A DNA stretch of 64,000 nucleotides from a virus (IMGVR_UViG_3300049734_000491:1-64000), one strand, 5' to 3'; numbered from the stretch's first letter, positions 10,381-27,729 are shown. Made by a program: numbers and translations. The notes: a model not told the origin generated them from the sequence alone.

Positions 10381-10454
10381 TTGTGGTTTGTTCCTTGTGT
10401 TGGTGGGTGGTCGGTGGTCGGCCAGCCCCGAAGGGCCAGCCGGCTCACCGTTGG

Positions 10455-10853: not shown

Positions 10854-10927
10854 TGGTGTTCCTTCCGTAGTTGATGATTGATGGTCTGTAGTGCTGGGGT
10901 TGCCAGCCCCGTCAGCATAGGTCGTGA

Positions 10928-12841: not shown

Positions 12842-13016
12842 TGCTTTGCCTTTCGGGTTGTGGTTGTTGCGTTGTTGATGTGGTCTACATTAGTGGATGG
12901 ATTCGATACTGTCAAGTCGTGGTTCTTGATCCTGTGAGCAGGCCAGGGGAGCTCAGCTCCCCCAGCCGCTCGAGCCGGCCGGCGACCACGACGAAGCACG
13001 GCCAGCGATCCTGCCG

Positions 13017-13976: not shown

Positions 13977-14083
13977 GGTCGTGGTCCTTTGTGGTTGTCG
14001 TGGTCGTTGTGCTTGATGTTGAACAGTGTAGTTGATGGTTTCTAGCTTGTCAAGCCCGGCCCTGGGGCCGGCCGGGCAAGAGC

Positions 14084-14545
14084 TCAGACAGCGTCGCAGC
14101 CGCCCGTGAAGACGACGTCGTTGTCCTCGATCACCGGACGACCGAGATGGTTGTCCTTCCAGTGCTTCGCACGGAATCGTGCCGAGATGCCGCGTCCCTT
14201 GCGAGACTCGATCTGGATCAGGTCGGCGTCGGTCAGACCGACGGTCAGCTCGCAGATCAGTCGGCACTCGCGAGCCGGCACGGACGAGTCCAGTTGGATC
14301 ATCTCGCTCAGCGCCTGTCGGGCGTGCTCGTCGGTCGGCAGGTAGCTGGCCGTCCACTGGCCCTGCTTCGCGTTCATGGCAGCCTGATACCGCATGACGA
14401 GCGGTCCAGCCAGCATGTAGCGGAGCGTGATCACCTGATCCTCGGTGATCGTGGCATCCGAGGCGGCGTCCACCCGCAACAGCTCGACGAAGTACGCCTT
14501 CTGTCCGGGCACGTCTTCCTTGTTGGGAACGTGTGCGTAGATCAT
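14084..14545 (-). CDS. Hypothetical protein
   Basis: Own promoter (14592-14620) and GAAAGGA RBS. Confidence 0.7.
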   Translation of the reverse strand: MIYAHVPNKEDVPGQKAYFVELLRVDAASDATITEDQVITLRYMLAGPLVMRYQAAMNAKQGQWTASYLPTDEHARQALSEMIQLDSSVPARECRLICELTVGLTDADLIQIESRKGRGISARFRAKHWKDNHLGRPVIEDNDVVFTGGCDAV

Positions 14546-14712
14546 GGTTGTCGTGGTCCTTTCGGGTTGGTTGTCGTTGTTGATGTTGGTCAGTGTAGTT
14601 GATGGTTTCTAGCTTGTCAAGTCGGCGTCCCAGCGGGTGAGGATGTCCTCAACTTGCCGGCCCGTCGTTCATGGGAGCAGTATAGGTTATCATACCGCCA
14701 ACGTCAAGTCGA

Positions 14713-15015
14713 TCAGAAGAAGTACCTGCTGACGGTCTCAGGTGCCAGCTCCGGGTGTTCGACCGGCTCCCATCCGATGGAGGCGCACTCGAAGGTGGTC
14801 TCGCCACCGAGCACGATGCGATCGCCCACCGAGAGCGAGTGGCTCCGGAAGTCGGCTGGATGGTTGATGTTGAAGGTGCGGAAGAGCTCCTCGAGCGAGC
14901 CGATGGCATCGCCCTCGAAGGGCACCTCGCCGGCGTAGGTCTGCTCGTACGGGCCCCAGAGGGGATCGGTGTAGCTGGCTGGCTTGCGCTGCCAGAGCTC
15001 GTATGGGATCTGCAT
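14713..15015 (-). CDS. YodL-like domain protein
   Basis: LEELFRTFNINHPADFRSHSLSVGDRIVL signature. Confidence 0.8.
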   Translation of the reverse strand: MQIPYELWQRKPASYTDPLWGPYEQTYAGEVPFEGDAIGSLEELFRTFNINHPADFRSHSLSVGDRIVLGGETTFECASIGWEPVEHPELAPETVSRYFF

Positions 15016-15147
15016 GATTGCCTTTCGGGTTGTGGTTGTGGTCGTTGCTTCGTTGGGGGACACAATAGTGGATGGACTGCAGTCAATGCAAGTCAGTTGT
15101 GGTACTGATCTGAGCTGGAGCTCAGCCTGGCCGACCAACTTATTTCA

Positions 15148-15211
15148 GGGCAGCCTTCGGCCCTCCTCTCGAGGTACTCACTCCCCTCGAGCAGTTGGTC
15201 ATCCCGGATCG
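15148..15211 (-). ncRNA. Candidate structured RNA, family A, copy 1
   Basis: 54/64 identical to 23269-23332 with three compensatory stem pairs; lies downstream of the promoter at 15260. Confidence 0.6.
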
Positions 15212-15393
15212 GTTGTGGGTGTCGGTCGTGGTGGACTCCTTTCGTTGTTGTTAGTAATCAGTATAGTGCATGGATCTCGAGCTGTCAAATCGAGCTGAGG
15301 TCCCCCTGACACGAGAAACCTTCCCCTCCGGTATGACGCCGGCGGCCTCAAGATGGGACACAGCCCTTTTTCGCCGAACCTGGCTGGCCAAGA

Positions 15394-15837
15394 TCAGAAG
15401 TCCCATCGCAGCCGCCGGCAGGTCCGGCACGCTCGAGCACCGGACGGATAGCGGTAGGTGTTGTCCTCGTCGAAGGGGTGTCCTTGAGGGCAATGGGTCT
15501 TAGCCCGCTGCCAACTTCCCTTGTTCGGATCCTTCTTCCTTCCCACGAGGGGGGATCGGCGAGCGTTCTCCTGGTTTGTGACTACTTCGAGGTGGTCAGG
15601 GTTCACGCAGGCTGGAGTCCGGCAGAGGTGGTCCAGCTGGAGTCCGGCAGGGATGTCAGTGACGAGTGCTTCGTATGCCACACGGTGAGCCTGAAACAGC
15701 TGGCGGTTGTCTTGTCCTCCGATTGAATATCGTCCGTACCCGTCAGCGTTCTTGGCTGCGGTCCAGAGCCAGCATCCGCCAGCCTGGACCTCAACCTTCT
15801 TCCAGAACCTCTCCTCGAGGATGGGATCACCGAACAT
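15394..15837 (-). CDS. HNH endonuclease
   Basis: RFWKKV, CWLW, LDHLCRTPACVNPDHL, THCPQGH, CRTC. Confidence 0.85.
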   Translation of the reverse strand: MFGDPILEERFWKKVEVQAGGCWLWTAAKNADGYGRYSIGGQDNRQLFQAHRVAYEALVTDIPAGLQLDHLCRTPACVNPDHLEVVTNQENARRSPLVGRKKDPNKGSWQRAKTHCPQGHPFDEDNTYRYPSGARACRTCRRLRWDF

Positions 15838-16190
15838 CAGAAGATCCCCGATGCCTCCAAATAAATGAGTGGCATGAACATCTCGGTGGGGTCATCCCCC
15901 CACGAGAGTCCGCCCGTGAGCCAGATCGTCTCCCCCCCGAACTCGAGGACGGTGATGTCCCGGCGAGGGCCCCGGACCCCCTCCACGGCAACGCGGAGGC
16001 GGTCCTGGACGTACTCCAGCACTTCCCCATCCTCGACGGGATCGTGCAGCTCGGCGTAGCCGGCCTGCTCGGCGTCGGTGAAGATGCGGTCGGCGTCGTC
16101 CACGGTGAGGCCGGAGATGAGCTCCTCGAGCTCCTCCACGGTCCGGCCGTGTCGGTCGACGGCGTAGGCGATCAGCATGTCAGCGCCCAT
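15837..16190 (-). CDS. Conserved hypothetical protein
   Basis: Acidic, with a TGGLSWGDDPTE motif; coupled to the HNH gene. Confidence 0.65.
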   Translation of the reverse strand: MGADMLIAYAVDRHGRTVEELEELISGLTVDDADRIFTDAEQAGYAELHDPVEDGEVLEYVQDRLRVAVEGVRGPRRDITVLEFGGETIWLTGGLSWGDDPTEMFMPLIYLEASGIF

Positions 16191-16259
16191 TGGTCGGCCC
16201 TCCCCACGCTCGGGCGATGGAGACCATCACCTCGTTGTAGAGCTTGGTGATCTGGGCGC

Positions 16260-16490
16260 TCATCGTTCGACCGCCTCGACGTCGATGAGGATGGCCTCCT
16301 CGGAGAGCTCGTCCCGAGCCTCGGTGTCGGTCAGGTCCAGCACGTCCTCGTCGATGAGGAACTGGTAGCGGTGCTCATCGGTGGGCAGGGCGTCGAACTT
16401 GGCCTTCTGGGCGTCGTTCAGAACTCCCTGCTCCTCGGTGCGGTACCGGATGATGGTGTCCCGGTGCACGGTGATCAGGTGATCGGTCAT
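16260..16490 (-). CDS. Small acidic protein
   Basis: Promoter at 16531 plus RBS. Confidence 0.65.
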   Translation of the reverse strand: MTDHLITVHRDTIIRYRTEEQGVLNDAQKAKFDALPTDEHRYQFLIDEDVLDLTDTEARDELSEEAILIDVEAVER

Positions 16491-16556
16491 GGTTGTGGTT
16501 GCCTTTCGTTGGTGGTTGTTGTTGTAGATCAGTGTAGTTGATGGAATGTAGGTCTG

Positions 16557-16949
16557 TCAAGCCGGCCGGATCTCGTCGATCGCCCGATGGGCCTGCCAGT
16601 CGACCCAGTTGACGAGATCGACCACGCTCTGGCCCACGGCGTCGCCGAGAGCCATCACGTTGTCCTCGATGTCGGCTGGGACGGGTTCCCCCATGTCGAA
16701 GCCGAAGAGCCCCTGTCGGAGGATCTCGTAGACGTCGAGGTCGAGGGAGGTGTTGGTCCAGCCGATGACTCCCTCCATGTCCCAGCTGATGGTGAACTCC
16801 TGGCTGGCCGGCGTGACGGTGAGCACGAAGCCGTCGCCGATCCCGATGTGAACGTCGGGGCCCAGAGCGAACTCGAGGAACTCGGCTGCCAGTCGAGCCT
16901 TGTCTCGGAGTCCGTCCTCGGTGACGGGTTGGATGTTGATGGTGGTCAT
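16557..16949 (-). CDS. Hypothetical acidic protein
   Basis: ATGA overlap with the upstream gene. Confidence 0.65.
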   Translation of the reverse strand: MTTINIQPVTEDGLRDKARLAAEFLEFALGPDVHIGIGDGFVLTVTPASQEFTISWDMEGVIGWTNTSLDLDVYEILRQGLFGFDMGEPVPADIEDNVMALGDAVGQSVVDLVNWVDWQAHRAIDEIRPA

Positions 16950-17182
16950 CGCACGGCCTCGCAGTTCTGGAGGGCGTGGAGGGCGGCCTGGAACGCACGG
17001 TCGGCCTTGAAGTAGGCCTCCTCGGTCTCCTCGGTCTCCTCGTCGGCTTCGATGATCTTCTCCTCGAGGATCCTCGCGTCGTGGAAGTCGATGGCTGCCT
17101 CGCCGAGATCGTCGAGCAGCTTCTCGAGCTCTCGCCGCTGGGCGAGCTGTTGGTTGGTCAGGTTGGGGAGCATGTCGCTCAT
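16946..17182 (-). CDS. Small acidic helical protein
   Basis: Promoter at 17215 plus RBS. Confidence 0.65.
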   Translation of the reverse strand: MSDMLPNLTNQQLAQRRELEKLLDDLGEAAIDFHDARILEEKIIEADEETEETEEAYFKADRAFQAALHALQNCEAVR

Positions 17183-17231
17183 GGTGGTTGCCTTTCGTGG
17201 TCGTTGTTGTGGTCAGTGTAGTTGATGGTTG

Positions 17232-17567
17232 CTAGCTTGTCAAATCGTCAAGCAGCACCCAGTGGTCGACGCCGGGGATCATGTTGAGTGTGCGGCCGCA
17301 GTCCCAGTCCACCCAGATCTGGGGGAGGGGCCCGTCCACCACGCCGGTCACGGTTCCCCGACTGCCGGCTGGGACCGGGTAGGGGTCGTCTGGCATGTCC
17401 ATGAGCTCGACCCGCATCCCGACCAGAATCGGTCGGTGGGTTCCGTTCTCGTTCTCCAGCTCGTCGTTCCCCGAGCAGCCGTCCCCCTCGGTCTGGTCGA
17501 CCCAGGCGGAGCCACCGTTGGTGAACTCGAGGTGGAGGATGTCGCCGCAGTAGGCACAGGCCGGCAT
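17232..17567 (-). CDS. DUF4314 domain protein
   Basis: GMRVELMDMPDDPYPVPAGSRGTV...IWVDWDCGRTLNMIPGVD. Confidence 0.8.
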   Translation of the reverse strand: MPACAYCGDILHLEFTNGGSAWVDQTEGDGCSGNDELENENGTHRPILVGMRVELMDMPDDPYPVPAGSRGTVTGVVDGPLPQIWVDWDCGRTLNMIPGVDHWVLLDDLTS

Positions 17568-17770
17568 CAGACGACCTCCACGGTTTCCATGAGGAAGGCG
17601 AGCAGCTCGTCGTAGCTCTTGCAGGCGAGCGCCTTCTTGGCGAACTCGTCGGCGTTGGCGGAGCCGTGGGCCCGCAGGATGGACTTGCGGACCACGCCGA
17701 TCAGAGCGAAGGCGTTGCCGTCGGTGCCGGTCAGCTTGACGGTGAGTCCGGGGTAGGTCGGCGTGCTCAT
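17567..17770 (-). CDS. Conserved small phage protein (DGNAF motif)
   Basis: VKLTGTDGNAFALIG...SYDELL. Confidence 0.7.
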   Translation of the reverse strand: MSTPTYPGLTVKLTGTDGNAFALIGVVRKSILRAHGSANADEFAKKALACKSYDELLAFLMETVEVV

Positions 17771-18084
17771 GCTCCCGCCTCCGCTTCGTAGTAGCCGATC
17801 TTGCGAGCGCCCGAACGGAGGGCGTCGAAGTCCAGGTCCTCGAACGCTGTGGGCGTGTCGAGAGCGTTCTCGATCGCATCGAACAGGTGGCCGACGCTCG
17901 CCACCGTGTCGGCGTCGTAGTCGAAGTCGCTCAGCATGAAGATCAGCGTGTTGCACTGGTCCTCATCGGTTTGGTCGAACTCGTTGTCGCCGGTCTCGTC
18001 GCGGACGTCCAGCACGTTCTCGTACCGGGCTTCCATGACCCAGAGCAGGGCGCCCTTCTCGGCGTCGGTCAGGTCGATCTTCAT
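17767..18084 (-). CDS. Acidic hypothetical protein
   Basis: Promoter at 18115 plus RBS. Confidence 0.65.
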   Translation of the reverse strand: MKIDLTDAEKGALLWVMEARYENVLDVRDETGDNEFDQTDEDQCNTLIFMLSDFDYDADTVASVGHLFDAIENALDTPTAFEDLDFDALRSGARKIGYYEAEAGA

Positions 18085-18139
18085 GTCGTGGTCCTTTCGT
18101 TGTTGTTGTGGTACATGATAGTGGATGGTTGCTAGCTCG

Positions 18140-18568
18140 TCAAGTTGAGGCCGGCCGGCGGATGGAGATGTTGTGCCACCACTCAGCCGGGATCGGCATG
18201 GTCGTGATCCACCAGTGGCGGGCGAGCTCAAGCCCTCCCCCTGTCGAGATCATGGTGTCGACCCACCAGTCCTGGAAGTCAGGATGGCAGCGGGCCCACA
18301 CCAGCCATGGAGCGACGATGGTGGGATGGATGGAGCTATCTGGGATGTCCACGGTGATCTCCACCTCGGACTTGTCGGCGAACCCTCCCCCGAGCCCGTG
18401 GAGGTCCTCCTCCCCCGGCTCGAGCGGTCGGTCCAGGAACCAGACAACTTCGTGGGGATGGGGCGGATCCCAGCTCACATTGGATTCGGTCAGCGTCAGC
18501 CAGCCGGCGTCCTCGATCATGGGCAGATGAAACCCTGATGTATAATGGTACAAACGCTTTGGAATCAT
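18140..18568 (-). CDS. Hypothetical protein, possible ADP-ribosyltransferase-like fold
   Basis: LYHYTS...L..I...GWL...VVWF resembles the start of ART/Tpt1-like domains. Confidence 0.45.
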   Translation of the reverse strand: MIPKRLYHYTSGFHLPMIEDAGWLTLTESNVSWDPPHPHEVVWFLDRPLEPGEEDLHGLGGGFADKSEVEITVDIPDSSIHPTIVAPWLVWARCHPDFQDWWVDTMISTGGGLELARHWWITTMPIPAEWWHNISIRRPAST

Positions 18569-19044
18569 GGTTGTCCTTTCAGCCGTCGCTTCCGTTCACG
18601 CTCTGTTTGAGCACGACAGGCGCGACAGGCTCGATGTCCTTGTGTGTTGATGTAGGTGTTCTTCTCGTCGTAGGGGTGTCCCTGAGGGCAGTGCGTTTTG
18701 GTTCGGTTTCTTGCTCCCTTCGCTGTCCTAGTGGCTTCGGTGTCAGGGGAACGTCGGACGTTCTCCAAGTGAGTCACTGCTTCGAGATGTGATGGATTGC
18801 AACAAGTTCGGTTCTTGCAGAGGTGGTCGATCTCGTAGCTTGCTGGGATGGATTCCTTGAAGGCTTCGTAGGCCACTCGGTGGGAGTAGTCCTCCACTCC
18901 TCTACCGATGGTGTATCGGCCATAGCCCTGGCCGGCCGAGGCTCCGATCCAGAGCCAACAGCCAGTTTCGTTCGGCCGGACCTTCTCCCAGAACCGTTCA
19001 CTGAGGATGGGATGTCCGAACACAGGCTCACCGTCGACCCACAC
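18565..19044 (-). CDS. HNH endonuclease (paralog of 15394-15837)
   Basis: FGHPILSERFWEKV, IDHLCKNRTCCNPSHL, THCPQGHPYDEKNTY. Confidence 0.85.
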   Translation of the reverse strand: MWVDGEPVFGHPILSERFWEKVRPNETGCWLWIGASAGQGYGRYTIGRGVEDYSHRVAYEAFKESIPASYEIDHLCKNRTCCNPSHLEAVTHLENVRRSPDTEATRTAKGARNRTKTHCPQGHPYDEKNTYINTQGHRACRACRAQTERERKRRLKGQP

Positions 19045-19050
19045 TGTTGG

Positions 19051-19398
19051 TCAGTCCCAGTCGAGGTCATCGGGAAGCTGGTACGGCTTGTGGTCGATGA
19101 CGATGTAGGCCACCGAGCCGGTCTCGGACATGGAGTCCCAGCCGTTGGTGTAGGCGTGGAAGATCTGGCCGTACTTGTCGGCGGTGACTTCCAGCATTTC
19201 CATCCGGGCGTAGCCCGGCTCGGCGAACTCGGCCATCCCCTTGAAGGTGGCTGGGATCTTGGGCAGAGCCTCGGCGGCCTCCCGCAGCTTGATCTCGGCG
19301 AGATCCAACTCAGCCAGCGCATCCTGGAAGGCTCGCTGTCCGGGTGTCATCTCTTCCCACCGCTTGCTCGCGGCGCTGAGGTACTGGTCGTCGGTCAT
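19051..19398 (-). CDS. Hypothetical protein
   Basis: Promoter at 19429 plus RBS. Confidence 0.65.
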   Translation of the reverse strand: MTDDQYLSAASKRWEEMTPGQRAFQDALAELDLAEIKLREAAEALPKIPATFKGMAEFAEPGYARMEMLEVTADKYGQIFHAYTNGWDSMSETGSVAYIVIDHKPYQLPDDLDWD

Positions 19399-19453
19399 GG
19401 TCGTTGTCCTTTCGTCGTTGTCGTGGTCAGTATAGGGGATCGCTCCCCCTTTG

Positions 19454-19921
19454 TCAAGCCAGCGGGTTGTAGCCCGGAGGCGGGTCCTGTTGCAGATGGT
19501 TGTAGTGGTCGATCAGGTCTTGGACCTGCAGCCCTCGGTTGAGTTCGACCGTGCCGGACTCGACCAGTTCGGCGAGTTCGTCGATGTCGATGGAGAGTTC
19601 CTCTCGGTCCTCAGCCAAGTTCCGGTGCCAGGGGATGTACGGTCGATCGCAGCGGGTCGCCCCCACCCGACCGAGGCCGGGCACGGTGACGGGCTTGTAG
19701 CCACGGGTCGTCATCAGACGACCCTGCTCACCGGCCTTCTCGAAGCAGTCATCGCAGATGTTGAATGCGATGAAGCTCAGGTCGAGCGAGTCGTAGACCC
19801 GGCTCCCGTAGTTGCCCGAGGTCTGGCACATGACGCCGTCCCGAGGTTGGGCCTCGTACTCGTCCATGTCCCGGAGCAGGGTCCGGCCACAGATGAGGCA
19901 GGGGAAGGACTCGCTGGTCAT
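19454..19921 (-). CDS. Zn-finger hypothetical protein
   Basis: CLICG...GNYGSRVYD...ICDDC. Confidence 0.65.
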   Translation of the reverse strand: MTSESFPCLICGRTLLRDMDEYEAQPRDGVMCQTSGNYGSRVYDSLDLSFIAFNICDDCFEKAGEQGRLMTTRGYKPVTVPGLGRVGATRCDRPYIPWHRNLAEDREELSIDIDELAELVESGTVELNRGLQVQDLIDHYNHLQQDPPPGYNPLA

Positions 19922-20076
19922 GCGTTCTCCTCGATGATCTCGACGCCCCAGATCTCGATCGCGGGCTCGTATCGAAGAGTTACGGCTTTGATGAAGAGTT
20001 CCTGAGCCTCAGCTTCGGTGACGTGGTCGTCGTCGTAGCGGAGGGTCATCTTCACGTTGAAGATGGTGTGTTCCAC
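19918..20076 (-). CDS. 52-aa hypothetical protein (below the ORF-track cutoff)
   Basis: Promoter at 20110, RBS, GTG start, ATGA overlap with the next gene. Confidence 0.55.
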   Translation of the reverse strand: MEHTIFNVKMTLRYDDDHVTEAEAQELFIKAVTLRYEPAIEIWGVEIIEENA

Positions 20077-20163
20077 CGTGGTTGCCTTTCGTTGTGGTTG
20101 ATGTTGTGTAGTATAGGGGATGGACCCGCCACTGGCAAGTCCATCCCCCAGGAGGAGCTCAGC

Positions 20164-20346
20164 TCACATCATCCCGAGGATGAGGAGCGGCGAGCGGTAG
20201 CCGTGAGGGCACCGGCCGTCGGGCTCGACGGGGCAGCCGTCGAACGCCTCGGTGACGCCCTCCCACATGATCTCCTCGAGATCCTCGAAGTCGAGTTGGT
20301 TGACCCAGCGCCGCTCTTCGGCCTGCTGATCGGGAGTGAGTGGCAT
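20164..20346 (-). CDS. Small Cys/His protein
   Basis: DGCPVEPDGRCPHG motif; promoter at 20381. Confidence 0.65.
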   Translation of the reverse strand: MPLTPDQQAEERRWVNQLDFEDLEEIMWEGVTEAFDGCPVEPDGRCPHGYRSPLLILGMM

Positions 20347-20429
20347 GGTGGTTGTCCTTTCGTCGTGGTTGTTGTAGAGCAGTATAGGGGATGGACTGCA
20401 CGGTGTCCAATCCATCCCCTAGAGGGAGC

Positions 20430-20861
20430 TCAGTTGTTGAGGTGCTGGAAGGCCGCGCGCAGGGCCAGCGCCTCGCTCGTCTCGAGCAGGGTGATGATCT
20501 CCTGGATCTCGGCGAGCAGTCGCGGGCCCTCGTGGTCGGAGAACCCGATGGTGTTCCCCATGTCGTCGGTGCGAGCGAGCACCACCGGACCGTTCACGCG
20601 GAACCCAGCCATGATGCTGGCGATCGGGTTCGGCTGATCGGCGTAGGTGTAGAGGTACTCGTCGTCGTGCCAGAGGTCGGTCCCGTCGGCGAGCTGGTGG
20701 ATCTGGAGCGTGCCGGGGATGATCGACTTGAGGAAGTCGTAGGTGGTGTCGCCACCCTCCACGTCGATCGTGGCCGGCGAGACCTGCCAGCCAAGCTCGG
20801 TGGTGCCGTCCTCGAGGAACGTGACGGAGGGGAGCATGACGATGACTCGTGGGTTGGTCAT
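20430..20861 (-). CDS. DUF3846-like protein
   Basis: LWHDDEYL...PNPIAS...VNGPVVL; promoter at 20898. Confidence 0.55.
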   Translation of the reverse strand: MTNPRVIVMLPSVTFLEDGTTELGWQVSPATIDVEGGDTTYDFLKSIIPGTLQIHQLADGTDLWHDDEYLYTYADQPNPIASIMAGFRVNGPVVLARTDDMGNTIGFSDHEGPRLLAEIQEIITLLETSEALALRAAFQHLNN

Positions 20862-20932
20862 TGTGGTTGCCTTTCGTTGTCGTGGTTGTTGTCGGTCAGT
20901 GTAGTTGATGGATGGTTGACTGTCAAGTTGGC

Positions 20933-21181
20933 TCAGTCGTCCATCGGGGCGCAGTGGGCGAACAGGCGGTCGGTCAGCATCAGGTGGTCTCGGTACCGGA
21001 TCTCGCAGGCCTTGCAGTCCTCGAGCGTGCACTCGTCGCCCCATCCTGGGAGGGACCAGTTGTCGGCGACGTCGTAGACGTCATCGTCCGAGAGGCCCTC
21101 GGGCTTCCGGTCGAAAGCGAGCATGAGCTCGGTGGAAGCGAGGATGGCTCGGTCGCGGTAGGTGAGCATGAAGAGTGGCAT
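20933..21181 (-). CDS. Hypothetical protein
   Basis: Promoter at 21222. Confidence 0.55.
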   Translation of the reverse strand: MPLFMLTYRDRAILASTELMLAFDRKPEGLSDDDVYDVADNWSLPGWGDECTLEDCKACEIRYRDHLMLTDRLFAHCAPMDD

Positions 21182-21252
21182 GGTGGTCGTGGTCTCCGGT
21201 GTGGTTGTGGTTGTTGTGGTCAGTGTAGTTGGTGGTTCTCGGTCTGTCAAGT

Positions 21253-21537
21253 TCAGCTGATGAGCTCGATGAGACTGGTGGAGCCGGCCTCACGGGTCAT
21301 GGCCGGGATCTGTTCGGCGATGTAGAAGAGCTGGCTGGCAGTCATGTCCAGCGCCTCCGCGATCCGGTCCATTGTCTTGAGGGCCGGAGCCTTCTGGCCC
21401 TTCTCAATCTCGGAGATGTACGGGTAGCTGATGCCAGCCGCCGTGCCCAGCTCTCGCCGGCTGATGTCCAGGAGGACTCGGCGGAGCACGATTGCCTTAC
21501 CGAGGTTCTTGCGGAAGTGGAACTCTGTCTCGTTCAT
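21253..21537 (-). CDS. XRE-family HTH transcriptional regulator (leaderless)
   Basis: ISRRELGTAAGISYPYISEIEKGQKAPAL..IAEAL; ATG 7 nt after the -10 box. Confidence 0.85.
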   Translation of the reverse strand: MNETEFHFRKNLGKAIVLRRVLLDISRRELGTAAGISYPYISEIEKGQKAPALKTMDRIAEALDMTASQLFYIAEQIPAMTREAGSTSLIELIS

Positions 21538-21569
21538 GGAGGTCAGCATAGTCCTTGGTTCGTGGTCTG

Positions 21570-21806
21570 TCAAGTTGAGCGGTCCAGGTGGCCGCAGGCC
21601 TTGCAGCGCCGGCGATGTGGCACGCCGTCCCATGCATGGCACCCGCACCCGCAGGTGGCAGCACGGCGGTCGGCCACGATGCAGCCGGTGGGCCCGATCA
21701 TGTGGCTGGCATCGGGGACCACCTCAAACCATCGGAGGGCCCGCTCGAGGTCGGTGTTGCGCCGCAGGGTGCCGTGGTTGGTCACGAGGTAGTAATACCC
21801 CTTCAC
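21570..21806 (-). CDS. Small Cys-rich protein
   Basis: CGCGCH...CKACGH; GTGA overlap with the upstream gene. Confidence 0.5.
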   Translation of the reverse strand: MKGYYYLVTNHGTLRRNTDLERALRWFEVVPDASHMIGPTGCIVADRRAATCGCGCHAWDGVPHRRRCKACGHLDRST

Positions 21807-22000
21807 TGTGACACTGCCTTCCGAGTCTCTCGTTCGGCGTCCGCCGCGAGCTCGTAGGCGTGGTTGATGGCAGCCAGCATCCGGCGGCTCATCTCGCGGT
21901 CACCGTCGTTGTCCTCTGCGTTCTCGAGGTAGTCCATCCAGGCAACCTTGAGCTGCTCGGCGAGGATGAGGTACTTCATCTGGCGCTCTTCGGCGGTCAT
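21803..22000 (-). CDS. Hypothetical protein
   Basis: Promoter at 22034 plus RBS. Confidence 0.6.
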   Translation of the reverse strand: MTAEERQMKYLILAEQLKVAWMDYLENAEDNDGDREMSRRMLAAINHAYELAADAERETRKAVSQ

Positions 22001-22083
22001 GGTCGTGGTCCTTCTGTTGTCGTCGTTGTGGTCAGTATAGGGGATGGACCTGCCACGCTGCAAGTCCATCCCCTAGATCGTCC

Positions 22084-22413
22084 TCAGACGATGGAGGGGC
22101 TGTTGGGCCGCACCGACCGGAAGGTCGTGGTGGTCCCGATGGCCGCCCAGACCTCGGGGAACTCGTCCTGCACCTTCTTGGCCGACACGTTCGGACGGGT
22201 CGACTCGACGATGGTGACGACGACGGCACCGCCGTGGACACCGGCCGTGGCGCCAACGGAGTCCATGCGAGCGAGCAGTGCGCCGCGGATCTCCTTCTGG
22301 CGATCCTCGAGCTCCGCCAGCGTGCGGCGGATCTGCGCCAACTCGCTCACGGCGAGGAGCTCGGCGCCGGTCAGTTCCACCGTGGTGGGGAGAGGGGTCG
22401 GGGTCATGGTCAT
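22084..22413 (-). CDS. Hypothetical coiled-coil protein (paralog of 10455-10853)
   Basis: Promoter at 22456; KKVQDEFPEVWAA motif. Confidence 0.65.
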   Translation of the reverse strand: MTMTPTPLPTTVELTGAELLAVSELAQIRRTLAELEDRQKEIRGALLARMDSVGATAGVHGGAVVVTIVESTRPNVSAKKVQDEFPEVWAAIGTTTTFRSVRPNSPSIV

Positions 22414-22513
22414 GGCACTGTCCTTTCGTTGTGGTTGTCGTGGTTGATGTTGTTCAGTATAGGCGGTGGACTTGTGGAGGTCAAGTCCACCGCCCATAGA
22501 TCTGTGGCCGGCC

Positions 22514-22684
22514 TCAGGCCCGCCCGGCCCGACGGGCCTCGCGGCGAGCGGCGAGTCGATCGGCGGCGGCACCGCGGCGAGCGATGGCTCGGACCTCGGA
22601 GAGCCGGTCCCGACGGACCTCGTCCATCGGGGTGGTGAGAAGGTCGAGGGTGAAGGTGACGGTGTGATCGCTCTCGTAGAACAT
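22514..22684 (-). CDS. Small hypothetical protein
   Basis: Promoter at 22728 plus RBS. Confidence 0.55.
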   Translation of the reverse strand: MFYESDHTVTFTLDLLTTPMDEVRRDRLSEVRAIARRGAAADRLAARREARRAGRA

Positions 22685-22776
22685 GGTGGTCGTGGTCTGC
22701 CTTTCGTGGTTGTCGTTGTTGGAGGTCAGTATAGGGGATGGATTGGTGCCTGTCCAATCCATCCCCAGGAGCTCTC

Positions 22777-22935
22777 TCAGAGAGCTGCCACCGCCCGTTC
22801 GATGCGCCGCTCCTGCCACGCGATGGCTTCGGCCAGCCGCTGCGGGTCGGGGGAGTCACCGCGCATCTGGATGGTGACGAGGTTGAAGTGGCACTGGAGC
22901 GCGTGCACCAGCTCGTCGCGAGGGTCGTACTTCAT
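22777..22935 (-). CDS. Small hypothetical protein
   Basis: Promoter at 22970 plus RBS. Confidence 0.6.
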   Translation of the reverse strand: MKYDPRDELVHALQCHFNLVTIQMRGDSPDPQRLAEAIAWQERRIERAVAAL

Positions 22936-23018
22936 GGTCGTGGTCCTTTCGTCGTCGTTGTTGTGGTACATGATAGGGGATGATTCTCGATCGGCGCCAA
23001 TCGGATTCTGAGGAGCTC

Positions 23019-23177
23019 TCAGCCTGCGATGGCTACCTTGAGAAGCCTGTCGTACAGGTACCACCGGCTCCGGGGTACGGAGCGAGCCAACTCGTTCTCA
23101 GCCCGCTCGAGGTTGGTGAACCGCTGGCCGCGGCTGGAAGGGTTCTCTCTGTCCTTGATTTCGTATCGCAGCTTCAT
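23019..23177 (-). CDS. 52-aa leaderless protein (below the ORF-track cutoff)
   Basis: ATG 7 nt after TATCAT; MKLRYEIKDRENP... Confidence 0.55.
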   Translation of the reverse strand: MKLRYEIKDRENPSSRGQRFTNLERAENELARSVPRSRWYLYDRLLKVAIAG

Positions 23178-23268
23178 GGGGATCATGATAGTTCATGGTT
23201 TGTAGTCAATGCAAGTCGGCGGCCGGCCTGGGTGAGCTGGAGCTCAGAAATGCCGGCTGGATATTTTT

Positions 23269-23332
23269 GGGCAGGCTTCGGCCCTCCTCTCAGAGTCCTC
23301 ACTCCCTCTGAGCAGTTGGTCATCGTGGATCG
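23269..23332 (-). ncRNA. Candidate structured RNA, family A, copy 2
   Basis: Starts a few nt after the predicted +1 of the promoter at 23345; covaries with copy 1. Confidence 0.6.
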
Positions 23333-23399
23333 CTGTATGGGTACAGTATAGGGGATTATTTGTAAGCTGTCCAGCCGACCCCTGAGGGCCGGCCTAGGA

Positions 23400-23639
23400 T
23401 CAGCCTCGAGGTCCGGTCGTCATGATCTCCCCGGTGTGGACCAGCTCGGAGAGCTCAGCCATGATCCGGAACCTGATGACTCGGCGAGCCGCCACATCGA
23501 GGCGGTCCGCGAAGTCGGTTGTGTCCGCCGACGGGAACTCCGCGCAGAACTTGGCGAAGCCCTCGGTCATGTTCTTGAGGATCTGTTCGGCCTCGGCCAG
23601 GTCCTGGCGAGCCTCGAGCAGATTGAGCGTTGTGTTCAC
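23400..23639 (-). CDS. Hypothetical protein
   Basis: Promoter at 23676 plus RBS. Confidence 0.6.
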   Translation of the reverse strand: MNTTLNLLEARQDLAEAEQILKNMTEGFAKFCAEFPSADTTDFADRLDVAARRVIRFRIMAELSELVHTGEIMTTGPRG

Positions 23640-23727
23640 TGTCTGCCTTTCGTGGTTGTCGTGGTTGATGAGGTCAGTATAGGGGATATTTCTGAGACTG
23701 TCAACTCTAGCATGAGCTCGAGCTCAG

Positions 23728-23798
23728 AGCTGCCGGCGGGAGTCGAACCCGCGTCCCGGGCTTTGCAGGCCCGTGCCTCACCGCTCGGCCACGGCAGC
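23728..23798 (-). tRNA. trnC: tRNA-Cys (GCA), CCA not encoded
   Basis: Acceptor GCTGCCG/CGGCAGC, anticodon arm CGGGC-CTGCAAA-GCCCG, T-arm GCGGG-TTCGACT-CCCGC, discriminator U73. Confidence 0.93.
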
Positions 23799-23803
23799 GT
23801 GTT

Positions 23804-23950
23804 TCAGTAGGAACCCTTGCGGCACGCCTTGCGGGAGGCTTCCTTGCGCCGGTCCTTGAAGGTGTGCGCCCGCTGGGAGATGCGCTGCATCCGAACCTCC
23901 AGCCGGGGCGTCTCGAACTTCGTCGACTTCTTGGGCTTGCTCTTTGCCAT
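23804..23950 (-). CDS. Small very basic leaderless protein, probably co-transcribed with tRNA-Cys
   Basis: MAKSKPKK...FKDRRKEASRKACRKGSY; ATG 6 nt after TATACT. Confidence 0.65.
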   Translation of the reverse strand: MAKSKPKKSTKFETPRLEVRMQRISQRAHTFKDRRKEASRKACRKGSY

Positions 23951-24008
23951 AAGGGTAGTATAGGGGATGGCTCTGATAGTGTGCAAGTCGAGGCCGGCCT
24001 GGCTGAGC

Positions 24009-24293
24009 TCAGTCCCGGCTCAGCCGGCTCCGCAGCCTCGGCGACTGCTCGAGCCAGTCGGGGCTCTCGTTCAGCGGGCAGGGGTGGAAGTCGGCCCGAA
24101 CCAGCTCGCGCCCGAGCCGGAGCTCCACACAACCGATGCAGAGCATCCCGTCGCCGATGCGAGGGCCGATGCCAGTGAGGTCCCAGACCTCGTCCTCGAG
24201 CTGGTAGTACTCACCGATGTCCAGGGTGTTCACGCCGCAGTCAGCACACTCGAACTCGACGAGGGGGGCATTTTGTGGGTATGGATTGGTCAT
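24009..24293 (-). CDS. Zn-finger conserved phage protein
   Basis: CADCG...EYY...VW...GMLCIGCVELRLGREL..DF. Confidence 0.7.
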   Translation of the reverse strand: MTNPYPQNAPLVEFECADCGVNTLDIGEYYQLEDEVWDLTGIGPRIGDGMLCIGCVELRLGRELVRADFHPCPLNESPDWLEQSPRLRSRLSRD

Positions 24294-24323
24294 GATTTCC
24301 TTTGTTGATTACCGTATCCGATC

Positions 24324-24755
24324 ATGGAGTCGTGGCCAGAGAGTGTTCGGCTGTCGACCAGAGAGTGCTGGTCATGGCCCGTAGAGACTGCTTACCGTCG
24401 AGATGGCCGTGCCACAGCTAGTAAGCAGTACATCTATCGGCTGCTCTACTTGATGTTGGTTGATCCGGATTTGTCAGATGACTTGGTATTGCACCATTTG
24501 TGTGGCAATGCGTGGTGTGTAAATCCTTGGCATCTCATTACCAAGACTCCAGCCGAACATGCTGCGGAGCACTTGGCTGAGCGGAACGCTCGCCGGCGGA
24601 AGCACACCTGTAAGAACGGCCACGACATGGACGATCCTGGGAATGTGGGCACCTTCACTCGAATGAAGGATGGAGAGGCTCGTGAGGAGCGTTACTGCCG
24701 AGCCTGCCGAGCTCTTTGGAAGAAGCGTCGGCAGGCTCGTCAGCGTGGTCTATGA
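24324..24755 (+). CDS. HNH endonuclease inserted against the array orientation
   Basis: CWSW, LHHLCGNAWCVNPWHL, CKNGH, CRAC; lower GC. Confidence 0.8.
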   Translation: MESWPESVRLSTRECWSWPVETAYRRDGRATASKQYIYRLLYLMLVDPDLSDDLVLHHLCGNAWCVNPWHLITKTPAEHAAEHLAERNARRRKHTCKNGHDMDDPGNVGTFTRMKDGEAREERYCRACRALWKKRRQARQRGL

Positions 24756-25322
24756 GACCTTCCCGCGCTTTGCGAGGATGGCCTCAGCTTCGGCCATGGT
24801 GGGGTAATGCCACCCGTTGTTCTTGCTGCACACCGGCCCGTAGCCAGCGGCGAGCGAGCGGCGGTCCTCAAGGTCGGCGAAGCAGTTGATGCACTGCATG
24901 TACTCCCAGCCCCACAGGCGGGCCTGCTCGTCGCTCATCAGCGTGTCGGCCGTGAGGGTGCGGAGGCCCTTCTTGCCTCGGTAGAGCCAGTGCCAGTCGC
25001 CATCCTCGGCCACGAGCTCCTTGCCCACGATCTGGCCGGTGTTGCGGGTGGCGATGACTCGGATGATCGCACCGTCGAGCGGGCGGACGTGGAGGCCCTT
25101 GGGCGGGTCCTCGCCACGGTGGGCGGCGGGCAGGCGGGTGGCGGCCTTGGCCAGCACCTTCGCGTGCATGGACCGTGCGGCCGCTTCCTGCTTCGGCGAG
25201 AGCCGGTGAGTGTCGAGGTACTGACGGGAGAGGCTCTGGGCGAAATCCGACCAGGTCTGGTCGTGCAGCCAGTCGGCGAGCTCGTCGAGGGTGATCGTGG
25301 TCTCTGTCGTGGTCTCGTTCAT
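24750..25322 (-). CDS. DUF6011-like Zn-finger protein (leaderless)
   Basis: CINCFADLEDRRSLAAGYGPVC; FAQSL..Q..LSPKQ. Confidence 0.7.
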   Translation of the reverse strand: MNETTTETTITLDELADWLHDQTWSDFAQSLSRQYLDTHRLSPKQEAAARSMHAKVLAKAATRLPAAHRGEDPPKGLHVRPLDGAIIRVIATRNTGQIVGKELVAEDGDWHWLYRGKKGLRTLTADTLMSDEQARLWGWEYMQCINCFADLEDRRSLAAGYGPVCSKNNGWHYPTMAEAEAILAKRGKVS

Positions 25323-25376
25323 GAGGGTCAGTGTAGTCCTTGGTTCGTCGTCTGTCAAGTCAGCCTGTCCACCAGC

Positions 25377-25559
25377 TCAGAAGCAGGTGTCACAGGTGCA
25401 GTGCGAGCGCCGACCGGACTGGCAGCGGGTGCTGGCATCGTGGCTGGGGCCGAACGGAACGCGGCCGGTTTCGTTGGCCTTGGCTCGATCACGGTCACAG
25501 GTGGGGCACTCACCCTCGGGGGCGAAGACTCGGTTGAGGTAGTCCTGGTCGGGATGCAC
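25377..25559 (-). CDS. Small Cys/His-rich protein
   Basis: CPTC...PSHDASTRCQSG..HCTCDTCF. Confidence 0.65.
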   Translation of the reverse strand: MHPDQDYLNRVFAPEGECPTCDRDRAKANETGRVPFGPSHDASTRCQSGRRSHCTCDTCF

Positions 25560-25648
25560 GGTGGTCCTTTCGTCGTCGTTGTTGGAGGTCAGCATAGGGG
25601 ATATTTCCCGTACTGTCAACTCGGGGGCCGGCCAGGCCGGGCCCGAGC

Positions 25649-25801
25649 TCAGGAGCTCGAGCCCAACCGAGCCTCGGCCTCGGCGCGGGCGTCGGCGCAA
25701 GCCTGCCGAATCTTCTCGGCGAACTCGGCGAACCGATCCCAGTCGGCCTCGGTGCAGTTCTCCCAGAAGGCCGTTCTCTTGTCGGTGGCGGGCATGTCCA
25801 T
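25649..25801 (-). CDS. 50-aa hypothetical protein
   Basis: Promoter at 25840 plus GAAAGGA RBS. Confidence 0.5.
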   Translation of the reverse strand: MDMPATDKRTAFWENCTEADWDRFAEFAEKIRQACADARAEAEARLGSSS

Positions 25802-25909
25802 CGTCCGGTCCTTTCGTCGGTGTCGTGGTCAGTGAGGTCAGTATAGGTCATGGCTATCTGACCGTCAAGTTCGGTTTGAGCTCCAGCTCAGCGAGCTGGT
25901 CCTCGAGCC

Positions 25910-26341
25910 AGAGAGGCGGTGGGAACCCCGGGCCGGGACTGCTTCGGCGCTACTTCCCCGGCAGGCGTGCACACCTCCGGTTACCTCACGACTCGGTGGG
26001 CCCGTTCTCCCCGTTCGCTCCCCTTACCGTTCGGGCTCCACCACCTTCATGAGTCGAGGATTTTCGACCGTAGGGCGTTTCACAGCCGTACTTGCGAGGG
26101 CACCTCCGGGGTCCCGGAGTTCTCATCGCTTCTCTGTGCGTTGGCCGTGGGGAGATTTCTCTCCCCGTGGCCGGCGAGTTCAGCGGGAATGGCTCTGTGG
26201 CTCGCGATGCCACTCGGCTCCCGGAGGACTTTCGGGCGTGTCCCCACTCACCCTCGGACTATCAATCTGGCGACCACCTCCGTTCGGGGCACTCCTACCG
26301 CCGTTTCGACCGTCGTGCGGAGTGCTTTGCTGTTGTTGTTG
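25910..26341 (-). ncRNA. Candidate large (about 430 nt) structured non-coding RNA
   Basis: Perfect promoter at 26348-26376; no RBS-led ORF; long-range closing helix (26293-26302 with 25915-25924, extended by CCCCG/CGGGG); internal hairpins. Confidence 0.6.
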
Positions 26342-26372
26342 TAGAGCAGTATAGGGGATGGTTTCCCCGTTG

Positions 26373-26525
26373 TCAACTCGGCGGTCGGTGACCCTCGAGC
26401 TTCCTCAGGAAGCCGAGTCTCCGACTCCGCCGTGCGTCGGCGCTGCCGACCGTCCAGGTCTGTCGGACGGCCTCAGCCAACTGGCGCCGGAGCTCGGCGC
26501 GGTCGGCGTTGTAGTCGGCGCTCAT
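26373..26525 (-). CDS. Small basic protein
   Basis: ATGA-coupled to the upstream gene. Confidence 0.45.
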   Translation of the reverse strand: MSADYNADRAELRRQLAEAVRQTWTVGSADARRSRRLGFLRKLEGHRPPS

Positions 26526-26695
26526 GCCGACCGCCGTCGGTACTCGGCCAGCGTGATCGTGCCGCGCTCGTCGTCCTCGAGGACCGTGGCTCGGTCCCAG
26601 AAGCGGGACGTGCCGGTGTAGGTCCCAGCGGGATCGCCGGTGTTCCGACGACCGGTCCGACCGGCGAGGCGGGCGGTGGGTTCGTTGTTGTTCAT
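26522..26695 (-). CDS. Small leaderless protein
   Basis: ATG 7 nt after TATCAT at 26703. Confidence 0.5.
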   Translation of the reverse strand: MNNNEPTARLAGRTGRRNTGDPAGTYTGTSRFWDRATVLEDDERGTITLAEYRRRSA

Positions 26696-26857
26696 GTCGG
26701 TCATGATAGGGGATGTTTTTGGGATGGCGCAAATCGTCGGCCAGCCCTGGATGAGCTCGAACACAGCAAGTCGTTTGTGGTATCTTGACGTAGTGGTATC
26801 CATGCACTATCATGTACTACATCAAGAGCGGGGAGGGTCTCCGCAGGAAAGGGCAGG

Positions 26858-26995
26858 ATGTACGAGGACAGTCACCTCGAGGCGGACTACGAGGATCGTT
26901 GGATCGCTGACACCGACGTCGATGACTCCGATTGGGAGGACGACTACTCGGACCTGGCCTACGAAGGCAGCGAGCACGCTGAGTTCGACTGGTGA
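26858..26995 (+). CDS. 45-aa extremely acidic protein
   Basis: Own promoter TTGACG-17-TATCAT (26785-26813), purine-rich RBS, 19/45 D+E, followed by a GAAA hairpin at 27001-27025. Confidence 0.7.
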   Translation: MYEDSHLEADYEDRWIADTDVDDSDWEDDYSDLAYEGSEHAEFDW

Positions 26996-27087
26996 GGTGA
27001 GGGGGCCGGCCGAAAGGCCGGCTCCGCCGCGTCCCGGGACACCTCGAGCGGAGCTCGAGCTGCCGGCGGCGCGTTCGGGAATACCGC

Positions 27088-27160
27088 GGATATTTTTCCG
27101 CAGGTTTCGGCCCTCGCCTCCCGGTATCCCTCGCCGGCGGGTTTCGTCATCTCGGATCGC
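27088..27160 (-). ncRNA. Candidate structured RNA, family A, copy 3 (divergent)
   Basis: GCGATCC..GATGAC...GAGGGCCGAA.CCTGC..AAAAATATCC shared with copy 2; directly after the promoter at 27170. Confidence 0.5.
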
Positions 27161-27217
27161 TTGAATGTCAGTATAGGGGATGGACTTGAACTTGTCAAGC
27201 CCATCCCCGGAGGCAGC

Positions 27218-27439
27218 TCAGGGGAGCTCGTCCCAGGCCGCGAGCAGGGCGTCCACGGGGTACTCGACTCGGAAGTCGCCGACCACGATGTTCTCGCAGG
27301 TGGTCACTCGGACGATGTGGAAGCCGTCCTCGTAACCCACGAACGCTGCGTAGATGCTCACGAAGGTGGGGTCGGCGGGGACGTACTCCGTGGCCGAGAG
27401 GGGCAGGTGGGCGATTTCTTCGGCGTGGTCGATTGCCAT
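27218..27439 (-). CDS. Small acidic protein
   Basis: First gene of the leftward array. Confidence 0.55.
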   Translation of the reverse strand: MAIDHAEEIAHLPLSATEYVPADPTFVSIYAAFVGYEDGFHIVRVTTCENIVVGDFRVEYPVDALLAAWDELP

Positions 27440-27467
27440 CGGTCTCTTTCTTGGTCGGTGGTTAGGC

Positions 27468-27604
27468 CACCAAGGAGCTCAGGTCTGCAGCCCCGAGCGC
27501 CGTCCGAAGGAGAGCGGTGCAAACCACCGGCTTACGCACGACTCACCAGACACGATGCTGGAGGGGTGACAACCGTTTGCACTTCGGTCGGTTTTTCCTT
27601 GGTG
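27468..27604 (-). ncRNA. Structured 5' leader or ncRNA (about 135 nt)
   Basis: Starts near +1 of the promoter at 27610; closing stem CACCAAGGA/TCCTTGGTG; inner stem GTGCAAAC/GTTTGCAC. Confidence 0.5.
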
Positions 27605-27729
27605 AGAGCAGTATAGGGGATAGTTTTGAGGCTGTCAAGTCGGCAGGAGCTCTGACTCAACTAGGGGGGAATTTGTCGAGTTCGGGGCCATTCCGCCGTG
27701 AATTGGCTGGGATCGCTTATGCTTCCGCT

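Follow-up and report, generated by a model that had tools for sequence, protein, structure and literature searches.

Promoters that share their DNA with a stem-loop have been described both in T4-type phages and in bacteria. The phage elements, called PeSLs (promoter-early stem-loops), are known from RB49/phi1, PST/T4 and nt-1/KVP40 (PMC2839356; PMC4122927). In the available text of these sources, PeSLs are sigma-70 promoters with GGGG..CCCC stem-loops that contain G–T pairs and were shown to terminate transcription (PMC2839356); mini-circles have been demonstrated, and a modular shuffling of genes has been proposed (PMC2839356; PMC4122927). The bacterial elements are promoter-coupled terminators. 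According to the accessible part of a recent preprint, their stem-loop DNA coincides with the −35 box of a promoter, the mapped RNA 3′ end lies at most 35 bp (mode about 10 bp) upstream of the mapped start site, and the coupled promoter raises termination efficiency via proximity and not via supercoiling (Fletcher et al., 2026, bioRxiv 10.64898/2026.08.19.745784). The words phage, actinobacteri-, Mycobacterium and Streptomyces are absent from its text (bioRxiv 10.64898/2026.08.19.745784). The present analysis concerns a stretch of 64,000 nucleotides (the window; bases 1–64000 of the 127,992-bp IMG/VR virus record IMGVR_UViG_3300049734_000491, with an estimated completeness of 95% and a G+C content of 64%) in which six promoters are built into hairpins that enclose the −35 box. 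Three more of these hairpin promoters lie in the metagenome contig L043, the sole close relative found. With a probability of about 60%, each element is a composite promoter–terminator cassette. A sequence-only reading of the window had proposed that one element serves both the 3′ end of the upstream transcript and the promoter of the next gene, and this is still the best-supported explanation: the combination of hairpin and promoter has good comparative support, and termination is the part that we infer from sequence.

The six hairpin promoters of the window (Table 1) belong to a promoter sub-type with a spacer ending in ..ATCCCC. The right arm of each hairpin is the 3′ part of the 17–18-nt spacer and ends at the −10 box TATACT in all six. 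The left arm begins 10–14 nt upstream of the −35 box and runs into it, so that the −35 box falls within the loop and the inner stem. The six stems are 12–17 bp long. Five of the six promoters score 10–11 of 12 against TTGACA-N17-TATAAT in the promoter scan, and promoter 3 (the 22038 copy), whose −35 box TTGCAG matches the consensus at three of six positions, was missed by it. In five of the six copies the intergenic order of stop codon, −35/−10, stem-loop, Shine–Dalgarno sequence and start codon is complete; in the 27170 copy a non-coding element stands in place of the Shine–Dalgarno sequence and the open reading frame (ORF). The DNA upstream of the hairpin promoters is G-rich, with no AT-rich tract upstream of the −35 box.

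Table 1. Hairpin promoters of the window and the promoter array to which they belong. Positions are those of the window; free energies refer to the folded RNA of the sense strand.
Feature	Position	Strand	−10 box	−35 box	Arms	Stem	Free energy (kcal/mol)	Upstream stop	Downstream	Ortholog
Hairpin promoter 1	20110..20150	minus	TATACT 20110-20115	TTGCCA 20133-20138	core 20116-25/20139-48; spacer + right arm 20116-20132; left arm 20139-20148, extended to 20150	17 pairs, 3-nt loop	-31.9	TGA 15 nt before core arm	GTG start 20076	
Hairpin promoter 2	20381..20421	minus	20381-20386	TGGACA 20404-20409	20385-95/20411-21	14 pairs (arms plus one U-G and two further pairs)	-27.0	TGA 10 nt before core arm	ATG start 20346	
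Hairpin promoter 3	22034..22075	minus	22034-22039	TTGCAG (weak) 22058-22063; 18-nt spacer	22038-49/22064-75	16 pairs incl. G-U	-31.1	TGA 10 nt before core arm	ATG start 22000	L043 777-818
Hairpin promoter 4	22456..22496	minus	22456-22461	TTGACC 22479-22484	22462-74/22482-94; variant type GGCGGTGGACTTG	13 perfect pairs, 15 extended	-28.0	TGA 19 nt before	ATG start 22413	L043 1200-1240
Hairpin promoter 5	22728..22768	minus	22728-22733	TGGACA 22751-22756	22734-46/22754-66 (GGGGATGGATTGG)	13 perfect pairs	-24.9	TGA 10 nt before	ATG start 22684	L043 1473-1513
Hairpin promoter 6	27170..27210	minus	27170-27175	TTGACA 27193-27198	27176-89/27195-208	14 pairs, one G-U on sense strand	-26.2	TGA 9 nt before	no ORF; conserved non-coding element of ~100 nt, ending at hairpin near 27000-27030	
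Promoter array (~27 near-consensus TTGACA-N17-TAYACT; sigma-70-type promoter scans)	8043..27638	minus								

These structures are not expected by chance. The whole record contains 14 inverted repeats with perfect arms of at least 10 bp and a loop of 3–15 nt, where 30 dinucleotide shuffles have a mean of 2.6; five of the 14 are hairpin promoters. The arms of these five coincide with those that the sequence-only reading had given for promoters 1 to 5 (Table 1), and the sixth hairpin has, as stated there, a single mismatch that is a G–U pair on the minus (mRNA-sense) strand. When the stem was instead required to touch a TAnnnT hexamer directly (at least 10 pairs, G–U allowed, loop 3–15 nt), exactly six were found in 128 kb and all are hairpin promoters; an equivalent stem occurs at 0.6% of 2,858 control positions on the same strand. 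Folded as sense-strand RNA, the six window copies reach −24.9 to −31.9 kcal/mol, with z-scores against shuffles of −5.5 to −7.7 (−5.5 to −8.4 across all nine copies), and adding 45 nt of upstream context leaves the hairpin as the minimum-energy fold. Free energy alone is not diagnostic, because many coding stretches of this genome also reach −20 to −35 kcal/mol in sliding-window folding. It is the clean stems and the fixed register, not the free energy, that set the hairpin promoters apart. Some promoters without a large hairpin have a 4–5 bp GGGG(A)..(T)CCCC stem wholly within the spacer (window 19429-19457, 26348-26376 and 25591-25619; L043 3665-3693, 4625-4653 and 5160-5188), which in one L043 case reads GGCG..CGCC. 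These short stems were considered as a PeSL-like placement and rejected, being no more frequent than chance (9/27 promoters against 20% of controls at a threshold of at least 5 pairs).

The portal protein of contig L043 shares 78% identity with that of the window over the best tblastn segment and 81% over the full alignment. Counts in L043 cover 21.7 kb, with the counterpart of window 20.1–22.0 kb lying outside, and include 18 minus-strand promoters of the same style. L043 744-1519 aligns to window 22000-22774 at 68.6% identity, and the three L043 hairpins are orthologs of the 22038, 22456 and 22728 copies because they lie within this shared block. That the arms differ in sequence (GGGGATGGAC, GGGGATGGATTGG, GGCGGTGGACTTG) while pairing is kept had already been noticed within the window, and the relative bears this out: the three orthologs keep the stem, and in two of the three pairs both arms have changed (GGGGATGGAC/GTCCATCCCC versus GGCGGTGGAC/GTCCACCGCC, and GGGGATGGATTGG/CCAATCCATCCCC versus GGCGATGGACTTG/CGAGTCCATCGCC). 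The sequence-only reading had made covariation at homologous promoters of relatives a test of its proposal, and on this point the comparison came out in its favour. Aligned together, the nine copies have standard pairs in 116 of 117 stem cells, and in four of the 13 pairs (10 cells) both sides have changed. None of 500 shuffles reaches the observed pairing, the covariation score or the number of double-changed cells, and 26 of 500 attain the observed count of pairs that changed on both sides. Shifting the partner by 1–3 columns lowers pairing to 34–53%, and RNAalifold recovers the identical helix unprompted.

The pairing obeys RNA rules on the sense strand. Eleven cells depart from Watson–Crick pairing; read on the minus (mRNA-sense) strand, they are ten G–U and one G–G with no A–C, and the RNA fold of the sense strand is more stable than that of the antisense strand in eight of the nine copies. 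A protein-binding palindrome or a cruciform would not predict such an asymmetry, because a function at the level of duplex DNA treats both strands alike. Moreover, RNA of the hairpin's sense strand comes only from the upstream gene, since transcription from the promoter itself begins beyond the hairpin. An action on the 3′ end of the upstream transcript (termination, processing or protection), combined with a promoter for the next gene, is best supported for this reason, and the best reading is a composite promoter–terminator or, at minimum, a hairpin that forms the 3′ end of the upstream RNA.

The position of the hairpins fits the same picture. All nine begin 6–19 nt after the TGA of a co-directional ORF (9–19 nt for the six in the window, whose place shortly after a stop had already been noted), and the first promoter of the leftward array (27610-27638), upstream of which we read no transcribed gene from the list of ORFs, is without a hairpin. 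About five other promoters (14025, 23345, 23957, 25591 and 25840) are preceded by a separate strong hairpin of −14 to −28 kcal/mol that ends 0–16 nt before the −35 box. Post-stop hairpins are thus common in the block, and the six are the case in which hairpin and promoter have merged. A scan for T-tract terminators over 13.0–28.5 kb returned ten sites, all on the plus strand, against 8.2 expected, and none on the minus strand. With no canonical T-tract terminator on the minus strand of that interval, any insulation between the transcription units must come from hairpins of this kind.

Stop codons in this region have further features. Many early genes have their TGA stop either within a recurring TGAGCTC motif or in the loop of an additional short hairpin (window 20150-20170, 22075-22095, 22768-22790, 25630-25670, 25875-25900 and 26395-26420), and the palindromes GAGCTC and GGCCGGCC often occur a short way upstream of the promoters.

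The following sequence of events would account for these properties. As duplex DNA, each element would be an ordinary strong promoter for the host RNA polymerase with its primary sigma factor, driving the next small early gene. When the same 33–41 nt are transcribed from the upstream gene, they would fold into a G+C-rich RNA hairpin of 12–17 pairs (−25 to −34 kcal/mol), with the −35 box in the loop and inner stem and the spacer as the 3′ arm. The predicted stem closes exactly at the −10 box (UAUACU), the sole A/U-rich hexamer nearby, which may take the place of the U-tract that is lacking here. The 3′ end of the upstream transcript would then be formed, by termination or by trimming and protection, a few bases short of the next start site. 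As in the bacterial promoter-coupled terminators, a polymerase bound to the overlapping promoter may strengthen the stop; by analogy, this roadblock effect would apply provided that these strong promoters are occupied by polymerase. As a side effect, the repeated cassettes would probably serve as linkers at which related phages shuffle early genes. A more far-reaching version, which we consider doubtful, is a relay in which the −10 box acts as a weak-hybrid tract, the released polymerase restarts at the next promoter and the cassettes are gene-swap joints among actinophages. If this were true, a few host polymerases could serve a chain of insulated one-gene units, and promoter–terminator coupling together with PeSL-type shuffling would extend to high-GC phages without U-tract terminators.

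Several observations weigh against a promoter–terminator cassette. The stem is followed by TATACTGA or TATACTAC: no T-tract of at least 5 T in 8 nt comes after it, and the tail UAUACUGA holds just 3 U. The hairpin is found on six of about 27 promoters in the window and on three of the 18 in L043, and roughly half of the remaining promoters are without any strong hairpin; since just a subset carries it, the hairpin is no general requirement of the array. Eight of the ten wobble cells involve the T-T-G of the −35 box, so that the G–U asymmetry is partly forced, because these residues cannot change freely; even so, all 16 cells that involve the −35 T residues have A or G opposite them, with no C or T among the partners. 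The covariation comes from nine related copies in two genomes with three arm types, and therefore represents few independent compensatory events. Among ten IMG/VR relatives found by portal alignment (31–52% identical), none has a hairpin promoter, and nine are without any near-consensus promoters, the sole exception being contig L053. Small shares of three metatranscriptome runs matched, with a few read-sized contigs at a depth of 2–3 and RNA ends that cannot be read from them; two runs gave read-sized pieces, including seven exact 151-nt contigs at a depth of 2–3.4, in which ends and strand are likewise unreadable.

The alternative that survives best limits the hairpin to RNA processing or 3′ protection: polymerase would read through, and the transcript would afterward be cut or trimmed to a stem that shields the upstream message. 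All of the structural evidence supports this explanation as well as it supports the cassette, and the missing T-tract suits a stabiliser better than a classical terminator. However, a stabiliser would be free to lie at any position downstream of the stop codon, like other hairpins of the region, and the explanation leaves open why the stem is locked in the promoter register, with the right arm ending at the −10 box in nine of nine copies. We therefore regard processing alone as unlikely.

A second alternative makes recombination the main role, with cassettes as crossover points at which early genes are excised, inserted and reordered, as proposed for PeSLs, and the RNA hairpin as secondary; the GGGG..CCCC stem might then be the target of a protein. 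The early block is indeed a mosaic between the window and L043. The homology block with the three orthologous hairpins ends at a start codon (window 22000) after its last cassette, and its other end is a stop codon (window 22774) before its first. A second block, window 20085-20378, consists of one small gene and the hairpin promoter downstream; it adjoins the first block in L043, is 2.3 kb apart from it in the window, and has its boundaries in a leader and at a −10 box. The gene in question (window 20164-20346) is thus relocated in L043 and stands beside a hairpin promoter in both genomes. This single comparison looks like the PeSL-mediated modular shuffling outlined in the available text on T4-type phages (PMC2839356). 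Yet the 27 promoters are all alike enough to act as homology patches for shuffling, which makes the hairpin unnecessary, and covariation that preserves pairing is unexplained by homology-driven exchange. Two apparent joints in DNA contigs had flanks of just 21–22 nt; they are unreliable and were set aside. No recombinase had been seen in the window, and this extends to the whole record, in which searches for Phage_integrase (PF00589) and Resolvase (PF00239) gave no match, while controls matched in 14/14 and 12/14 genomes, respectively. A main role as a site for recombination is accordingly improbable. An integron attC-like folded site, which the sequence-only reading had also considered, is unlikely on similar grounds: neither a tyrosine nor a serine recombinase was found in the record, at 95% completeness, and the stems, perfect or with G–U pairs only, have no extrahelical bases.

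Third, the hairpin could form at the DNA level, as a cruciform or a non-template-strand hairpin under negative supercoiling, and remove the −35 box from the duplex, in which case the promoter would sense the topology of phage DNA as it is injected or replicates. The arms are long enough and the loops short (3–9 nt as folded), and on the antisense strand, too, the hairpins are stable (−20 to −27 kcal/mol). G+C-rich arms, however, extrude poorly as cruciforms. In addition, G–U pairs are tolerated on the sense strand only, and the other strand would bear ten A–C mismatches; the constant position after a stop codon is irrelevant to the model. For the bacterial promoter-coupled terminators, although these are other elements, the accessible text of the preprint describes coupling in vitro as independent of supercoiling (bioRxiv 10.64898/2026.08.19.745784). 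Taken together, a topology-sensing promoter is slightly less probable again than a recombination linker.

An operator for a dimeric phage or host regulator that controls a subset of promoters is very improbable. A palindrome bracketing the −35 box has the classical position of an operator, a Cro/CI-type helix-turn-helix gene lies in the same region (the XRE-type protein encoded at 21253-21537 would be an example of such a regulator), and in the available text of the preprint one terminator palindrome doubles as a LexA site (bioRxiv 10.64898/2026.08.19.745784). One protein, however, would hold its half-sites to one consensus, whereas the hairpin promoters have three arm types that were changed on both sides together, and the candidate palindromic operator was rejected on this point. 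The half-sites are about 23 bp apart from centre to centre, the inner pairs vary freely provided that they remain paired, and a tolerance for G–U is meaningless in a duplex operator. Equally improbable is a functionless by-product, in which quasi-palindromes were re-perfected by template switching and spread by cassette duplication: the correction of imperfect palindromes by template switching is an established mutational process and the nine copies are clearly related in sequence, but the process yields Watson–Crick perfection on both strands and not a one-sided excess of G–U, the orthologous stems were kept despite divergence of their surroundings to 68.6% identity, and the position after the stop codon is constant.

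The genome in which the composite cassettes are found is most likely that of an uncultured soil phage with a high-GC Gram-positive host. The host assignment is drawn from the relatives of the portal protein, the G+C content and GAAAGG ribosome-binding sites; the portal shows just 35–38% identity to its counterparts in Arthrobacter, Microbacterium and Gordonia phages and in "Actinomycetia phage DSL-LC01". From about 8 to 27.6 kb the genes lie on the minus strand and make up the early region. The promoter scan found 26 sigma-70-type sites in 13.0–28.5 kb, where shuffles have 1.9 ± 1.3; the minus strand carries 24 of the 26, and in a separate scan of the whole record nearly all strong promoter sites fall within the block of about 8–27.6 kb. 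Most promoters of the array are followed by a CA-rich leader of 25–40 nt, then GAAAGG and then a start codon. Of 16 small early proteins tested, 14 have no Pfam family; one has the Cro/CI-type helix-turn-helix, and one has a weak Pfam match below the cut-off.

Several non-coding features accompany the array. A conserved non-coding element of about 90–100 nt lies directly behind its own promoter in three window copies (26990-27172, 23175-23347 and 15090-15262, minus strand) and two L043 copies (3860-4012 and 2060-2224). One of the window copies is that behind hairpin promoter 6, and no ORF follows the copies behind 27170 and 15260. Its copies share an invariant core (..GAGGGCCGAA..CTGC..AAATA..) and a stem with covariation among them, and there is no Rfam match; the element is probably a small-RNA family of the phage. 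A stretch of about 430 nt without an ORF (window 25880-26345, minus strand) lies behind the promoter at 26348-26376, is G+C-rich and is partly kept in L043 4152-4293. It is a candidate for a large structured RNA and gave no Rfam match at the gathering score or at E ≤ 1. A gene for tRNA-Cys (GCA) lies inside the early promoter array (window 23727-23798, minus strand; kept in L043 4900-4966), and tRNA was the sole Rfam match at gathering scores, with none further at E ≤ 1 over 22.9–27.3 kb.

Outside the array, giant plus-strand ORFs of 2540 and 2358 aa (29875-37497 and 38541-45617) directly follow the portal gene and have no Pfam or PHROG family. Counterparts at the equivalent place are an ORF of 2605 aa in L043 and a coding sequence of about 9.9 kb (about 3,290 codons) in DSL-LC01. 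A different perfect inverted repeat (AGTTCTTGTAC..GTACAAGAACT), with arms of 11–13 bp and an A/T-rich loop, occurs in two copies about 270 bp apart (window 2650-2680 and 2917-2950) beside a DUF3987 primase/helicase-like gene; the pair could be an operator pair or an origin-like feature.

Searches beyond L043 gave no second set of hairpin promoters. Window 19000-24000 had no megablast match among 50,697 phage records. Three arm/spacer patterns gave 23, 10 and 12 matches in IMG/VR, and none of the loci has a hairpin promoter of this family; a search of IMG/VR with the portal protein alone gave no relative. Phage DSL-LC01 (portal 37.5%) has no such sigma-70 array. L053 (portal 31% identical) has ten TTGACS-N16/18-TATACT promoters at 5700-16300, none with a hairpin; most have TG just before the −10 box, the spacer is conserved (..cgttccggg..), and the transcripts are mostly leaderless. 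Full-text literature searches, with subscription journals outside their coverage and including one for phage terminators that overlap promoters, found no description of such elements in actinophages.

Hairpins associated with promoters are also known from phage N4 and the F plasmid. The promoters of the N4 virion RNA polymerase have a stem of 5–7 bp and a 3-nt loop and are read by a phage single-subunit polymerase, and Frpo of the F plasmid has both the −35 and the −10 box rebuilt inside the duplex stem of single-stranded DNA. Both had been offered as alternatives by the sequence-only reading. Beyond the association of promoter and hairpin, the geometry differs: the elements described here have a normal duplex sigma-70 consensus, with the −10 box outside the stem, unlike Frpo, and the −35 box in the loop and inner stem. 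Stems of 12–17 bp inside such a promoter do not fit the 5–7 bp of N4. The record has no match to PF00940 (T7-like RNA polymerase), a search in which the control matched nowhere.

Hairpin terminators without a U-tract have been proposed for high-GC Gram-positive bacteria, although whether they terminate is disputed. They share with the hairpin promoters a G+C-rich stem directly after the stop codon, no U-run and a high-GC genome; the hairpins described here differ in being fused to a promoter. Textbook terminators are scarce in high-GC Gram-positive bacteria and in their phages, and the way in which their dense gene arrays are insulated is unsettled. The nine elements are a natural family in which a sense-strand hairpin, locked into a consensus promoter, is under selection. 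They also provide a clean test case, because mutations of the outer left arm, and changes that compensate them, can be made that leave the −35 and −10 boxes and the length of the spacer unaltered. If the stems terminate, promoter–terminator coupling holds without a T-tract, the PeSL idea extends beyond T4-like phages, and 40-bp stop-and-start parts become available for actinobacterial engineering. If they do not, they are still a well-supported RNA structure conserved within promoter DNA.

As far as the accessible text of the preprint describes them, bacterial promoter-coupled terminators resemble the hairpin promoters in lying between tandem genes, with stem-loop DNA that overlaps the −35 box of the next promoter on the same strand, and in an expected RNA end a few bases upstream of the next start site, so that one sequence has both tasks (bioRxiv 10.64898/2026.08.19.745784). 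They differ in that the bacterial T-tract lies in the spacer between stem and −10 box, whereas here the right arm abuts TATACT, and in that the bacterial elements are unrelated sequences, whereas here a repeated family covaries. PeSLs are the closest described family. The available texts describe repeated intergenic cassettes among small early genes without known function, the order of stop codon, −35/−10 with built-in stem-loop, Shine–Dalgarno sequence and start codon, and stems that are often GGGG..CCCC with G–T pairs and were proposed as terminators or attenuators of upstream transcription (PMC2839356; PMC4122927). All of these have a counterpart here, as does gene shuffling among relatives with junctions in the cassettes, which in the present case is seen with one relative. 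In contrast to PeSLs, the hairpin promoters belong to an unrelated lineage and host, a high-GC genome that resembles those of actinophages, and the stem is found on a promoter subset only. The PeSL stem usually lies between the −35 and −10 boxes or over the −10 box and an AT-rich tract precedes the −35 box, whereas here the stem brackets the −35 box and stops at the −10 box, with no such tract; terminator activity and mini-circles were shown for PeSLs, whereas termination is a prediction for the present elements (PMC2839356; PMC4122927). Most likely, the hairpin promoters are a compact variant of a device known from T4-like phages and bacteria.

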